DNA of 64,000 bases from Escherichia phage vB_EcoM-E33: the sequence record OL780484.1, one strand, 5' to 3'. How positions within the stretch are numbered: position 1 is the first letter of the stretch; the number at the start of each line of letters is the position of its first letter. The notes under the pieces were generated by a model, which was given only the letters and a program-made list of their open reading frames with translations, had not been told where the DNA came from and did not search any database. Below, in pieces: positions 22,387 through 35,434 of this stretch. The position numbers and the translations under genes are program-made.

Positions 22387-22716
22387 ATGAAAACATATAA
22401 CGAATTTGTACAAACTGAAGCAATTAATGAAGTAGCCATCCCTAAACCGGCTAAAGCTGGCGGTACTGAGTACTACCATATTGAAACATCTTTTGATGCA
22501 GCTTCAGATATGGCTAACGGGCTTGGTGATTTCATCCGTCAAGCTAAGTCCGACCTGGCTAAATTTACAAAGACCCTTGATAAAGAGCAAAAGAAACCTT
22601 TCTCGGATCTGGCTAAAAAACTGGACGCGTTAAATGACAAGGTCTTTAAAGAAGTTTACCACGGTATGATTGGTCTTACCCGTGAATTCAATGCTGAAGT
22701 TAAAAAACTTCCCTAA
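22387..22716 (+). CDS. internal-protein-like protein with capsid-targeting leader (ipI position)
   Basis: N-terminus MKTYNEFVQTEAINE resembles the T4 internal-protein leader MKTYQEFIAE with an (I/L)xE protease site; adjacent to 57B as ipI is in T4. Confidence 0.7.
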   Translation: MKTYNEFVQTEAINEVAIPKPAKAGGTEYYHIETSFDAASDMANGLGDFIRQAKSDLAKFTKTLDKEQKKPFSDLAKKLDALNDKVFKEVYHGMIGLTREFNAEVKKLP

Positions 22717-22726
22717 GTACAGATAA

Positions 22727-22747
22727 GGAGCCACAAAGCTCCTTTTT
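22727..22747 (+). terminator. rho-independent terminator
   Basis: ggagc-cacaaa-gctcc hairpin followed by ttttt. Confidence 0.7.
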
Positions 22748-22764
22748 GTATCTAAACAAAAGGT

Positions 22765-22794
22765 GTTTACTTTCCTGGATAGCCGTGATACTAT
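22765..22794 (+). promoter_or_regulatory. early promoter cassette (GTTTAC, 18 nt, TACTAT)
   Basis: -35 GTTTAC 22765-22770, -10 TACTAT 22789-22794, followed by the conserved block agccctatcaaaaca. Confidence 0.6.
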
Positions 22795-22830
22795 AGCCCT
22801 ATCAAAACAAATGAGTGATTGGAGAATAAA

Positions 22831-23016
22831 ATGAAACGTTGTGAATTAATTAGAAATGTTACTGCACTGGCCGCTGTTACCGCTTTTGGCTTTAGTATGT
22901 TTGCAGGATTCATGCTCGATATGCTTTCAACTTCCGAGAATATAATCTCTTTAGTAGTGGCATTTTTAATTGGTTCAATTTCTTTTGTTATGGATAAAAT
23001 CTCTAAAGGTGAGTAA
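22831..23016 (+). CDS. small hydrophobic (membrane) protein
   Basis: ATG 22831 after SD ggag; MKRCELI...; two hydrophobic stretches; ORF-track TTG start at 22819 rejected. Confidence 0.55.
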   Translation: MKRCELIRNVTALAAVTAFGFSMFAGFMLDMLSTSENIISLVVAFLIGSISFVMDKISKGE

Positions 23017-23017
23017 A

Positions 23018-23398
23018 ATGTATAAAGTGTATGCAGATTATCAGGCAAATCCATCTGAAAAACCAGATTGTCAAATTGGGTGGGCACACGACACCCTGCT
23101 TGAGGCGGTAGATAAAGCCCAGGAATTAGGGTATAGTTATGTGGATATTGTTCAACCCAATGGGTCCGTTATTACACTTGAAGAATTCAAGAATATCAAA
23201 ACAAACTTTTTGCTCTTTGCGGGTGATAACTATTACCCTCGTGGCGGTTATGCCGACTTAATCGCAAAGGCCGCTACTGAAGATGAACTGCGCGATATCA
23301 TTAAAGAAAATGAGAATAACCCTCTTTACGGTTCCAATCGTTTTGACTGGTGGCAGATTGTTAATGCTAATACCCATACTATTGTAGACGAGGGTTAA
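23018..23398 (+). CDS. hypothetical protein
   Basis: ATG 23018 two nt after the previous stop with SD ggtgag; 126 aa. Confidence 0.55.
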   Translation: MYKVYADYQANPSEKPDCQIGWAHDTLLEAVDKAQELGYSYVDIVQPNGSVITLEEFKNIKTNFLLFAGDNYYPRGGYADLIAKAATEDELRDIIKENENNPLYGSNRFDWWQIVNANTHTIVDEG

Positions 23399-23689
23399 AT
23401 GCTATACGTTAAGGTTACTAATCCAGAGAATGGCTATAATTCAGACCAGGTTGCAGCAGAGCTACTGATTCGCAACTTTGGCAAAGGTGCTGTGCTTGAT
23501 GTCCAACAGGTTAATATTGGTCGTAGTTCAAGCGACGTTAAACTAAAAGTTAATGGTCGCCGTTATAATTCTGTTAACTTTACTTTCTACACCGCAACTG
23601 AAAACGGATTGATCGAATACGACATCTTTAAAAATCCTTTGAAGATTGCTTCTATTAAACTTGATTACATTAATATGTGGCCACAATGA
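23399..23689 (+). CDS. hypothetical protein
   Basis: ATG directly follows the upstream stop (TAAATG); 96 aa. Confidence 0.55.
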   Translation: MLYVKVTNPENGYNSDQVAAELLIRNFGKGAVLDVQQVNIGRSSSDVKLKVNGRRYNSVNFTFYTATENGLIEYDIFKNPLKIASIKLDYINMWPQ

Positions 23690-23863
23690 ATCAAATTTGA
23701 CCAGACTATTCCTAAAAATAGTAATATGCTTTAAGAGTAATGTGTTATTATTACTCTATCATTAATACCCTCTATTACCAAAGGTTCTTCCCTCAAAGAA
23801 CCTTTCATAATAGACAAGGTCTATTAATCAAACTTACTTTACTTAATTTTATTTGAGGTGTTT

Positions 23864-32941: not shown

Positions 32942-33383
32942 GAAAGCTAAGGAATTATCGGCAGGTATTTTGTTCATGACCGTTGATAAAGAACTAGTTA
33001 TGGGTCGTGTAACAGGCTCTCGTAATCCAGAGAATATGCGTCATAAATGGGACATTCCTAAGGGTCATGTCGAACCAGGCGAAGAGCCTATTCAAGCGGC
33101 AATGCGCGAAACCGAAGAAGAGATTGGATTCACAGCATACGATCCTGCGTTCCTGAAAGACCTAGGTGAGTTCAAATATTCAAGCAATAAGAATCTACAT
33201 CTGTTCTTATATACAGTGCCTGTGGAACACGAGCAGTTCAAGGATTGCAAATGTACGGCTTACCATACGTTCCCTGATGGTCGTACTATTCCTGAATTCG
33301 ATGCTTTTGCCTTGATTAAACGGCCACAATGGGAATATGTCATGGGCCCGTCGATGTTTAAGGTTTTGGATTCACTCTTTTGA
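32934..33383 (+). CDS. nudE: Nudix hydrolase (NudE-like)
   Basis: Nudix box GHVEPGEEPIQAAMRETEEEIGF; ATG 32934 overlaps the previous stop (ATGAGTAA); ORF-track start 32829 would be a 35-aa extension. Confidence 0.85.
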   Translation: MSKKAKELSAGILFMTVDKELVMGRVTGSRNPENMRHKWDIPKGHVEPGEEPIQAAMRETEEEIGFTAYDPAFLKDLGEFKYSSNKNLHLFLYTVPVEHEQFKDCKCTAYHTFPDGRTIPEFDAFALIKRPQWEYVMGPSMFKVLDSLF

Positions 33384-33413
33384 TATAAATACCTCCTATA
33401 CTCAGGAGGTATT
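33384..33413 (+). promoter_or_regulatory. late promoter TATAAATA plus SD-sequestering hairpin of gene e
   Basis: TATAAATA 33384-33391; atacctcct (33389-33397) pairs perfectly with aggaggtat (33404-33412), which contains the e gene SD. Confidence 0.7.
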
Positions 33414-33908
33414 ATGGATATTTTTGATATGTTACGTCAAGACGAAGGTCTTGATTTAAATCTTTATAAAGACACTGAAGGTTATTGGACTATTGGCATT
33501 GGCCAATTGATTACTAAGAACCCTTCTAAAGATGTTGCTCGTGCTGAACTTGATAAGCTTATGGGTCGAGTTTGTAATGGTCGTATTACTATGGCTGAAG
33601 CTGAACAACTCTTTAACCGATCGGTTGAAAATGCTCGTAGAGCTATTCTGCGTAATCCTAAATTGAAACCTGTTTATGATGTACTGGACGAAGTTCGTCG
33701 TTGTGCTTTAATTAACATGGTCTTCCAAATGGGTGAAGCAGGCGTAGCAGGGTTCACTAACTCTTTACGTATGCTCCAACAGAAACGTTGGAACGATGCG
33801 GCAGTTAACCTGGCTCAATCCCGTTGGTATAAACAAACTCCTAATCGTGCTAAGCGCGTGATTTCAACATTTAAAACAGGTACTTGGAAAGCATATGAAA
33901 ACTTATAA
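33414..33908 (+). CDS. e: endolysin (T4 lysozyme e)
   Basis: 164 aa; [30 protein letters not shown]...[31 protein letters not shown].. near-identical to T4 lysozyme; catalytic E11, D20, T26 present. Confidence 0.95.
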
Positions 33909-34293
33909 TGAATTTATCGCAGAGAATGTAATTCCTGCATCTAAAGAACTTTTGGCGATGTTTGAATCTGAAGAGTTCACTGAAGAACTGAATGAGAACC
34001 TGACCCAGGCCACTCCTCAGGTTATTCGCGTTCGTAATGCCCTTCAGACAGGCATGCAGGCTCGTGTATCTAAGACTATGAAGCTGGCATTCACCACTTC
34101 TAAAAATGAAGACTATGGTGATGGTATTGCAATGAACACTGGGCAGTATTATGTTGAGTGGAATGGTGAAACCGGTACTGCTAAGATTCGCCAAACGAGA
34201 GCAGCGGGTGGCAAAATGTTGGACCTTAAACTGAACGTTAAAGAGAAAGACGTCGCGGCTTTGTTCAAGAATTGGATGAAGACTTACAAATAA
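33895..34293 (+). CDS. internal-protein-like protein with capsid-targeting leader
   Basis: N-terminus [11 protein letters not shown] (identical EFIAE site to the T4 leader); start overlaps the e stop; 132 aa. Confidence 0.7.
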
Positions 34294-34322
34294 GTTTACA
34301 TCTCCTGTAGTCATGATACTAT
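34294..34322 (+). promoter_or_regulatory. early promoter inside stem-loop
   Basis: GTTTAC 34294-34299, 17 nt, TACTAT 34317-34322; arms atctcctgtag / ctacaggagat, the latter containing the denV SD. Confidence 0.6.
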
Positions 34323-34349
34323 AGACCTATCAACTACAGGAGATTAAAA

Positions 34350-34766
34350 ATGACTCGTATCAACCTTACCTTAGTATCTGAATTGGCTGACCAACACTTA
34401 ATGGCTGAATATCGTGAATTACCACGTGTTTTCGGTGCAGTTCGTAAGCATGTTGCTAATGGTAAACGTGTCCGTGATTTCAAAATCAGTCCTACTTTTA
34501 TCCTTGGCACAGGCCATGTTACATTCTTTTACGATAAGCTTGAATTTTTACGTAAGCGACAAATTGAGCTTATAGCCGAATGTTTAAAACGTGGTTTTAA
34601 TATCAAGGATACTACTGTCCAGGACATTAGTGACATTCCTCAGGAATTCCGTGGTGACTATACTCCACACGAAGCTTCTATTGCTATATCTCAGGCCCGT
34701 TTGGACGAAAAAATTGCACAACGCTCTACCTGGTACAAACATTACGGCAAGGCTATTTACGCTTAA
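34350..34766 (+). CDS. denV: endonuclease V (pyrimidine dimer DNA glycosylase)
   Basis: 138 aa; [34 protein letters not shown]... essentially colinear with T4 DenV as recalled. Confidence 0.93.
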
Positions 34767-34808
34767 TTAAATCCGTGATAGAATACTTCTATCAACTTAA
34801 GGAATAAT

Positions 34809-35168
34809 ATGAAAACTTACCAACAATTTATTACTGAATCTACTCAGCGCATTAACGAAGCTATGTCTCCTGAACAATTGGCTAAGGCCAAAGAAGGGCT
34901 GAACCCATCTGAAGTTTTTAAAGTTACAGGTAAAGACTTTGCTTCCATGGCCACTAACCAGAGCTTGGCTAAAGAACTTAAATCTAAATCTAACTTCATT
35001 CATGCTACATGGAATGGTGATTCTCTTACTTCAATAAGTGTGTACAATAAAAAAGGTCTCCTTAAGAGTTCTTATGGCGCGGATGCCATCCGTGTTTCTA
35101 AATCAGATTGGCATAAAAACACTACTAAAGCAGAAAAACCTCATAACCCGGCACTAGACCATCTTTAA
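34809..35168 (+). CDS. internal-protein-like protein with capsid-targeting leader
   Basis: N-terminus MKTYQQFITEST; 119 aa. Confidence 0.7.
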   Translation: MKTYQQFITESTQRINEAMSPEQLAKAKEGLNPSEVFKVTGKDFASMATNQSLAKELKSKSNFIHATWNGDSLTSISVYNKKGLLKSSYGADAIRVSKSDWHKNTTKAEKPHNPALDHL

Positions 35169-35176
35169 GGCTTAAT

Positions 35177-35434
35177 ATGAAAACTTACCAAGAATTTATT
35201 ACAGAATCCACTTTAGTTTCTAAACGTTGGAATATGATTGTAAACGTTAAACCTTCCGGCACTGAAGTTTCTATGGCCGACCCTAATGATGACGAACTTG
35301 AGCACGCTTTTAGCTCTAAAGAAACTGACGAGAAAGTGGTTAAGCAACTGGTTGCTGATGCAGATCAACTTCGTAAAGTAGCAGATGTTGTTAAGCTGTT
35401 TACTAAGAAAGGTTTTAAACACGAAGAACGTTAA
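35177..35434 (+). CDS. internal-protein-like protein with capsid-targeting leader
   Basis: N-terminus MKTYQEFITEST; 85 aa. Confidence 0.7.
   Translation: MKTYQEFITESTLVSKRWNMIVNVKPSGTEVSMADPNDDELEHAFSSKETDEKVVKQLVADADQLRKVADVVKLFTKKGFKHEER

Follow-up and report, generated by a model that had tools for sequence, protein, structure and literature searches.

The 64,000-nucleotide stretch of Escherichia phage vB_EcoM-E33 (sequence record OL780484.1) analyzed in this work, hereafter the window, carries five genes whose products share the N-terminal leader of the T4 internal proteins (Ips). Our results indicate that these genes are quite probably additional members of the T4-type Ip class, which would be packaged into the head, processed by the prohead protease gp21 and injected into the host, where they may act against a defence, most likely a nuclease. 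The reading of the five products as packaged, processed and injected internal proteins is well supported by sequence comparison; their actual packaging, cleavage and injection are what we infer, as are, by analogy, an anti-defence role and its targets. The five genes are listed below, with an arrow marking each predicted cut and pI standing for the isoelectric point.

22387..22716, + strand: ip22387, 109 aa; leader MKTYNEFVQTEAINE; predicted cut after E15 (INE↓V).
24738..25202, + strand: ip24738, 154 aa; leader MKTYNEFLTE↓Q.
33895..34293, + strand: ip33895, 132 aa; overlaps the end of e and is followed by denV; first cut predicted after E10 (↓N).
34809..35168, + strand: ip34809, 119 aa; leader MKTYQQFITE↓S, second site INE(15-17)↓A; pI 9.5; 3' of denV.
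35177..35434, + strand: ip35177, 85 aa; leader MKTYQEFITE↓S; 3' of denV, after ip34809.

An earlier reading made from the letters alone (the sequence-only reading) had singled out five genes starting with MKTY[NQ][EQ]F. This number held, as exactly five open reading frames (ORFs) of the window, all on the + strand, were found to start with this motif followed by (I/L)xE. A looser form of the leader, M(Kx)[YF]x[EQD]F...[ILV]xE, run in six frames on the 675 Met positions with 40 or more codons after them, returned the same five ORFs and no others; the chance expectation of KTY[NQ][EQ]F starts in the window was 3.4e-5. That the cargos behind the leader are unrelated to one another, as had also been proposed, was confirmed by an all-versus-all BLASTP of the leader-stripped proteins (24-sequence database), which gave no pair at E < 1. 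Neither Pfam nor NCBIfam gave an above-threshold match to one of the five proteins, and BLASTP and tblastn detected no homology of them to Ip1, Ip2 or Ip3. As in the T4 Ips, the mature part is basic in four of the five (pI 8.8-9.5).

The proposed match of the leader to the T4 capsid targeting sequence (CTS) was borne out by comparing the N-termini with those of T4 IpI, IpII and IpIII. Both IpII and IpIII start with MKTYQEFIAE↓A, and IpI starts with MKTFKEFTSTTTPVSTITE↓A, with a displaced site at I17/E19. According to Mullaney and Black 1996, as cited in PMC9026906, the first 10 residues of IPIII are enough for encapsidation in T4, targeting being controlled by residues 4 and 7 of the leader and processing by residues 8 and 10. 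Y4 and F7 are present in all five window proteins, and I/L8 and E10 in four of them; the fifth, ip22387, carries I13/E15. Hence the sequence-only reading, which had placed an (I/L)xE tripeptide at residues 8-10 (with VQTE/AINE listed for ip22387), was right for four proteins and needs refining for ip22387, where residues 8-10 are VQT (V8/T10), which is no processing site, and the usable (I)xE site is I13-N14-E15. In Citrobacter phage CF1, the leader of the ip22387 homolog is shorter (MKTYSEFMQINE↓VSVPKP) and ends in the same INE↓V junction.

Following the T4 model, each of these proteins would be made with an N-terminal CTS of 10-15 residues that would dock it on the scaffolding core during prohead assembly. 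gp21 would then cut after the Glu of (I/L)xE, the predicted cuts being after E15 in ip22387, E10 in ip24738, E10 (probably also E34) in ip33895, E10 (probably also E17) in ip34809 and E10 in ip35177. The freed mature protein would be kept in the head with the DNA and injected along with the genome into the next host, where it might inhibit a first-line defence stoichiometrically, which would be possible because the protein is present before any phage gene expression. If the example of T4 Ip1, Ip2 and Ip3 can be followed, this defence would most likely be a nuclease attacking the modified DNA of the phage.

The leader codons of the five genes differ synonymously (ACA/ACT, TAT/TAC, AAC/AAT, ATC/ATT and GAA/GAG), and no conservation was found in the DNA 5' of the genes past the Shine-Dalgarno sequence. 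Moreover, the leader was kept in homologs from Mosigvirus, Roskildevirus, Moonvirus and Tequatrovirus phages while the cargo diverged to 32-78% identity: the ECML-134 (Tequatrovirus) homolog, with a cargo identity of 74-78%, starts with MKSYTQFLNEAVLNE, that of JK36 (Mosigvirus; 32%) with MKTYQEFITE, that of Erwinia phage Cronus (48%) with MKTYKEFLAE and that of Serratia phage 4S (53%) with MKSYNQFLDE. Because the codons vary synonymously and the leader outlasts the divergence of the cargo, the conserved leader appears to reflect selection on the peptide and not on a nucleic-acid module. The ratios of nonsynonymous to synonymous substitution (dN/dS; Nei-Gojobori), which are rough as synonymous sites are near saturation, were 0.05 for ip22387 (against the CF1 homolog), 0.08 for ip24738 and 0.03 for ip33895, with e (0.115) and denV (0.16) as controls. 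With respect to a metagenomic variant, ip34809 showed 8 synonymous and 0 nonsynonymous codon differences and ip35177 showed 10 and 3, respectively. Together, these comparisons indicate that all five are real genes under purifying selection.

Proteins that share the prohead with gp21 should avoid (I/L)xE in their bodies. Motifs past residue 35 were therefore counted and compared with composition-preserving shuffles. Among the matches listed from IMG/VR, 119 leader ORFs contained 48 internal motifs against 83.5 ± 8.3 expected, and none of 500 shuffles was as low; the 16 distinct leader ORFs of T4, JS10, ABTNLS3 and WG01 contained 2 against 9.4 ± 2.8 expected (P = 0.006), these P values being optimistic as the sets include related sequences. 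The control, 51 non-leader ORFs of the window + strand, showed no depletion (102 against 89.5 ± 8.2 expected). This class-wide depletion supports a processing-competent packaging.

The five genes differ in how widely they are distributed, the counts given here being out of 50,697 phage records. The family of ip22387, whose mature part has 94 aa and a pI of 8.8, comprises 8 records, two of which, in RefSeq, carry the label 'internal virion protein', as does the matching group phrog_7857 (E 2.5e-25). The other four families are named only "hypothetical" and were not annotated as Ip in the records examined. By far the largest is that of ip24738 (phrog_2280, function unknown; mature part of 144 aa, pI 9.5), with 511 records, about 400 of them at 60-80% identity (one checked: ECML-134, a Tequatrovirus), all 'hypothetical' among the matches listed. 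Structure prediction, which the sequence-only reading had suggested for the mature parts, gave models for ip24738 and ip33895, but no PDB fold could be assigned to the former: its AlphaFold2 model (predicted local distance difference test score, pLDDT, of 72.7) consists of two helical domains (13-67 and 85-151) with a Lys/Pro/Ala-rich linker between them, and Foldseek found no PDB match with E < 2.

The family of ip33895 (phrog_15461, function unknown) has 49 records, from phages of E. coli, Klebsiella, Serratia and Erwinia, 'hypothetical' among the matches listed, and the protein is 90% identical to its homolog in Klebsiella phage Marfa despite a proportion of synonymous differences (pS) of 0.81. 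A second site in this protein, LNE(32-34)↓N35, is nearly invariant in the family, residues 11-31 are variable and indel-prone, and AlphaFold predicts residues 1-35 to be disordered, ahead of a core formed by a helix, a five-stranded sheet and a helix (mean pLDDT 61.5, core ~70). On account of the first three of these features, we predict that ip33895 carries a 34-residue pro-region. A family profile searched against 1.84 billion representative proteins found only leader-bearing phage relatives, and Foldseek against BFVD returned only a homolog. A phmmer match of ip33895 to the target-recognition region of M.HhaI (E = 0.011) was discarded as due to chance, since it was lost with the family profile, which gave equally weak matches to flagellin in its place.

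The 89 records of the ip34809 family (phrog_3966, function unknown) comprise 12 close homologs and 77 at about 32% identity (one checked: JK36, a Mosigvirus), labeled among the matches listed as hypothetical, plus one scrambled label. This label, "RNA polymerase ADP-ribosylase", stands on the homolog from phage vB_EcoM_ESCO10 (OM386655.1) and was ignored; the product names of that record appear scrambled, the lysozyme being named 'baseplate subunit', denV hypothetical and leader-bearing ORFs 'RNA polymerase ADP-ribosylase'. The fifth gene, ip35177 (mature part of 75 aa), is an ORFan, with leader-level PHROG matches only, one cluster among 5.8e9 proteins, and 6 phage records that are all identical and 'hypothetical' among the matches listed.

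The window is 98.8% identical to Escherichia phages WG01 and QL01, and the region is 91% identical to JS10. These three phages belong to the genus Dhakavirus (Straboviridae, Tevenvirinae), and the window is thus that of a Dhakavirus-type T4-like phage. Its gene order is T4-like: gene 1, 57A, 57B, the ipI locus, trna.4-trna.2 and the tRNAs, followed by a hyperplastic region, nudE, e, an ip locus, denV and the vs genes, up to genes 47 and 46. The neighbors of the leader genes are the following.

21924..22379, + strand: gene 57B, encoding Acb1 (Pfam PF23474, E 8.9e-59), an inhibitor of the cyclic-oligonucleotide-based anti-phage signaling system (CBASS); directly 5' of ip22387.
24363-24479: rnaD homolog, 88% identical to the T4 stable RNA; 3' of tRNA-Arg.
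24486-24624: rnaC homolog, 98.6% identical to the T4 stable RNA; 3' of tRNA-Arg.
34294..34349, + strand: ip33895-denV junction, the slot of a 198-aa IpIII gene in WG01, QL01, ABTNLS3, JS10 and JS98.
36613..36891, + strand: vs.4, an Acb2-type gene; 1.2 kb 3' of ip35177.

The two Ip-class loci (57B-trna.4 and e-denV-vs.8) hold four of the five genes, and ip24738 lies at a third site, its start being 446 nt 3' of tRNA-Arg, just past the rnaD and rnaC homologs. The sequence-only reading had described all of these as T4 ip-like positions, which is correct for the genes beside 57B and flanking e and denV, but the tRNA-adjacent site is an empty gap in T4. A leader gene next to the tRNAs is nevertheless not peculiar to the window, as other Tequatroviruses have leader genes at that site, ECML-134 having two. 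Both canonical ip loci adjoin anti-CBASS genes, 57B (Acb1) and vs.4 (Acb2-type); the domain PF24729 Acb2_Tad1_hairpin was found on the identical vs.4 protein of L133, a Dhakavirus-like metagenomic contig of 19.9 kb (Logan SRR20950850). No Rfam family matched the rnaD and rnaC homologs. A 411-nt stretch of this region folds with z = -5.2 and has at its end a terminator-like hairpin, just 5' of the late promoter of ip24738.

Several putative expression signals accompany the leader genes.

22725..22744, + strand: terminator-like hairpin and T run 3' of ip22387; an early-type promoter, GTTTAC...TGATACTAT, comes next.
24704..24711, + strand: exact T4 late-promoter box TATAAATA, 26 nt 5' of the ip24738 ATG.
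33384..33391, + strand: exact late-promoter box, 5' of e.
34756..34784, + strand: early-type promoter-like site TTTACG-N17-TAGAAT with TG and a short hairpin, directly 5' of ip34809/ip35177.

As ip33895 overlaps the end of e and a late box lies 5' of e, both genes can be co-transcribed. The window as a whole holds no excess of exact late-promoter boxes (four on the + strand and 6 in all, with 7.8 expected); what is informative is solely that such boxes lie before ip24738 and before e/ip33895. The T4 genes ipI, ipII and ipIII carry GTTTAC…TGATA(C/G)TAT stem-loop elements and have no TATAAATA within 130 nt. The promoter signals of the window appear compatible with those of the T4 ip genes.

A comparison of the window with WG01, ABTNLS3, JS10, JS98 and T4 revealed differences in gene presence at these loci. 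ip22387 was present only in the window, ip24738 in the window and WG01, ip34809 and ip35177 in the window, WG01 and ABTNLS3, and ip33895 in all except T4; IpIII was present in the five other phages and absent from the window, where no homolog of IpI, IpII or IpIII was found anywhere along the 64 kb. The arrangement without IpIII is common to the window and IME540, IME281 and EcWhh-1 only. At the junction in which IpIII would be expected (34294-34349), an imperfect inverted repeat of 27 nt encloses an early-type promoter (GTTTAC...TACTAT), an arrangement resembling the promoter early stem-loop (PeSL) shuffling elements. The order annotated for JS98 is e-ipIII-orf114-denV, and in the expert-curated records of JS98 and JS10 IpIII is the sole named Ip. 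At the equivalent loci we counted 3 leader ORFs in T4, 4 in JS10, 6 in ABTNLS3, 9 in WG01 and 5 in the window, so that five leader genes is an unexceptional count. A scan of IMG/VR with a DNA pattern, for which fewer than 1 chance match was estimated in the whole collection, recovered at least 120 loci with at least 131 distinct leader ORFs in at least 60 sequence families; the system of a leader with variable cargo is therefore very large, and the window is an ordinary sample of it.

Additional rearrangements were observed in metagenomic sequences. In contig L133, denV directly follows e, with no ip gene between them, and the ip34809 and ip35177 pair is kept after denV, a further case of cassette-like gain or loss. 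The 194-aa protein P0030 is a natural fusion of two leader-type cargo domains: its N-terminal half is homologous to an 86-aa leader protein that stands alone in Mosigvirus JK36 (E 3e-12), its C-terminal half is the ip33895 core, and, the halves being joined by an ELTE↓S motif, it may be a gp21-cleavable 'polyprotein' Ip. P0010 (94 aa) is a chimera of the N-terminus of trna.3 (cf. 22970-23398) and the last ~30 residues of ip24738, which implies a deletion or recombination across the tRNA region that joined two genes in frame. In the window, the hyperplastic region between the tRNAs and e also encodes a 191-aa protein with DUF7338 (25226-25801) and a 340-aa protein with DUF7277 and DUF7275 (30101-31123). 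Four tandem small ORFs at 28241-29280 (96, 93, 70 and 74 aa) look paralogous, have W-x-S-S-x-x-C-type C-termini (…AWISSSAMC, …GWVSSSSEC, …FWFTSSMSC, …IWYPSSC) and bear only "hypothetical protein" labels in relatives.

The Ip interpretation is an established paradigm and not a new one (PMC3012670, PMC9026906, PMC12373910). Variable Ip genes bearing a CTS have been known since 1994 (Repoila et al. 1994, as cited in PMC12373910), and at least 10 Ips were identified through this signal sequence (PMC12373910, citing Repoila 1994); in 2010 the Ip genes were termed a "diverse set of defense proteins". Ip1, Ip2 and Ip3 were shown to block three different GmrSD type IV enzymes, one each, and GmrSD variants were proposed as the targets of all proteins encoded at the two Ip loci (Silas et al. 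2025, PMC12373910); IPIII is required for T4 infection of ECOR17 (Srikant et al., bioRxiv 10.1101/2022.04.14.488369).

Several observations weigh against assigning the five proteins to this class. Their P1' residues are V, Q, N, S and S, in place of the Ala of the T4 Ips, and ip35177 is near-neutral (pI 6.1) and not basic. Taken by themselves, the five window proteins showed no significant depletion of internal (I/L)xE (1 motif found, 3.1 expected, P = 0.17), this set being too small and pointing in the same direction as the larger ones. Gene 21 lies outside the 64-kb window; the 98.8% identical WG01 encodes a head maturation protease together with scaffold proteins, and the gp23 of WG01 carries the site FLTE↓AEIGGDHGY, which corresponds to the maturation site of T4. 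With regard to function, ip4-10 of other T4-like phages gave no reproducible GmrSD inhibition (PMC12373910), and therefore the anti-restriction role may not generalize. In addition, Dhakaviruses have been reported with clusters for cytosine arabinosylation (5-hydroxycytosine) and not glucosyl-hydroxymethylcytosine (PMC13326640), and the WG01 annotation shows no a-gt gene in the interval from gene 47 to gene 55. The specific targets of T4 need therefore not apply here, and the host nucleases relevant to Dhakavirus may differ from those relevant to T4.

The likeliest of the alternatives is that the proteins are injected effectors whose targets are not type IV restriction enzymes but toxin-type abortive-infection effectors, other nucleases or host-takeover targets. 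We regard this as possible but rather doubtful, as all three characterized Ips target GmrSD-type enzymes (PMC12373910), the moderately confident fold of ip33895 is a generic alpha/beta sandwich, and its profile search found no relatives beyond leader-bearing phage proteins. It is unlikely, in our view, that the proteins are packaged but generic, that is, basic, Lys-rich polypeptides that neutralize the charge of the DNA and aid its packaging or ejection without a specific host target. The basic character of four of the mature proteins, the lack of a detectable GmrSD target for ip4-10 (PMC12373910) and the ~1000 internal protein molecules embedded in T4 DNA, with Lys-phosphate contacts (PMC3012670), would fit such a role; the cargos, however, are unrelated folded domains under strong purifying selection, they show presence/absence polymorphism between near-identical phages, and one of them is not basic. 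Furthermore, the 90% identity of ip33895 between E. coli and Klebsiella phages, at saturated synonymous sites, would be unexpected for a mere polycation, and all three T4 Ips were proved to have specific targets (PMC12373910). Finally, it is highly improbable that the common start serves nothing but initiation or shuffling, as a translational or recombinational module of proteins neither packaged nor processed. A ATGAAAAC start and an AAGGA-type Shine-Dalgarno sequence are indeed common to the five genes, promoter/stem-loop elements accompany the shuffling hot spots formed by these loci (PMC4122927), and a natural chimera and a natural fusion exist; however, the peptide is conserved despite synonymous codon differences, the upstream DNA is not, the conserved positions are those that experimentally drive targeting and cleavage in T4 (as described in PMC9026906) and internal (I/L)xE is depleted class-wide.

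Within the favored interpretation, that of packaged, processed and injected Ips with nucleases as their likeliest targets, what is new here is modest: four of the five families were so far "hypothetical", one family lies at a third locus in the window, after rnaC, and occurs in ~500 phage genomes, and one gene is an ORFan. We tentatively raise a bolder proposal, which we would not bet on as a whole: some of the five proteins, mainly ip33895, ip34809 and ip35177, could be injected inhibitors of defences outside the known reach of the Ips, such as a nuclease for arabinosylated 5-hydroxycytosine DNA or, given the predicted TriTu-like fold of ip33895, a toxin-type effector, and the tRNA/rnaC site could be a third, unrecognized Ip locus in ~500 T4-like genomes. 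We encountered the ip33895 and ip34809 families exclusively in Dhakavirus, Marfavirus, Mosigvirus and relatives, lineages for which cytosine arabinosylation has been reported. As injected proteins act before phage expression, they help to decide whether therapeutic or environmental T4-like phages infect wild strains. The four "hypothetical" leader-bearing families, one of them very widespread, come from a group with DNA modification unlike that of T4, and they represent a ready list of candidates to be screened against type IV enzymes and further defences recognizing arabinosylated DNA. Genome annotation can be corrected as well with this result, which leaves the concept of the Ips unchanged.

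With respect to known systems, ip33895 resembles TriTu, the immunity protein of the Salmonella Rhs toxin TreTu (PDB 7zhm_D), in predicted fold only; with 9% identity, no profile-level relationship and a model of moderate confidence, this likeness is a lead and not evidence of membership. The five proteins share with the named variable Ips (Ip4-Ip10) the presence of unrelated cargos behind a conserved leader, the hyperplastic ip loci and the hypothesized anti-defence role; they differ in that none matches Ip7, Ip9 (WG01) or Ip10 (JK36), Ip4, 5, 6 and 8 being outside the comparison, and in that ip24738 occupies the third locus, after rnaC. T4 IpI (IPI*, the inhibitor of GmrSD CT596) shows no sequence likeness to ip22387, whose homologs are named 'internal virion protein' in RefSeq (phrog_7857), although both genes lie in the same slot directly after 57B and both products have a longer leader with a displaced (I)xE, of 15 residues in ip22387 and 19 in IpI. 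As for T4 IpII and IpIII, the mature parts of the window proteins have no sequence likeness to theirs, P1' is not Ala and IpIII itself is absent from the window; nevertheless, they have in common a near-identical 10-residue leader with Y4, F7, I/L8 and E10, a small and mostly basic product, the e-denV region, where ip33895, ip34809 and ip35177 are located, and, in the case of ip34809, an early-type promoter in a stem-loop.

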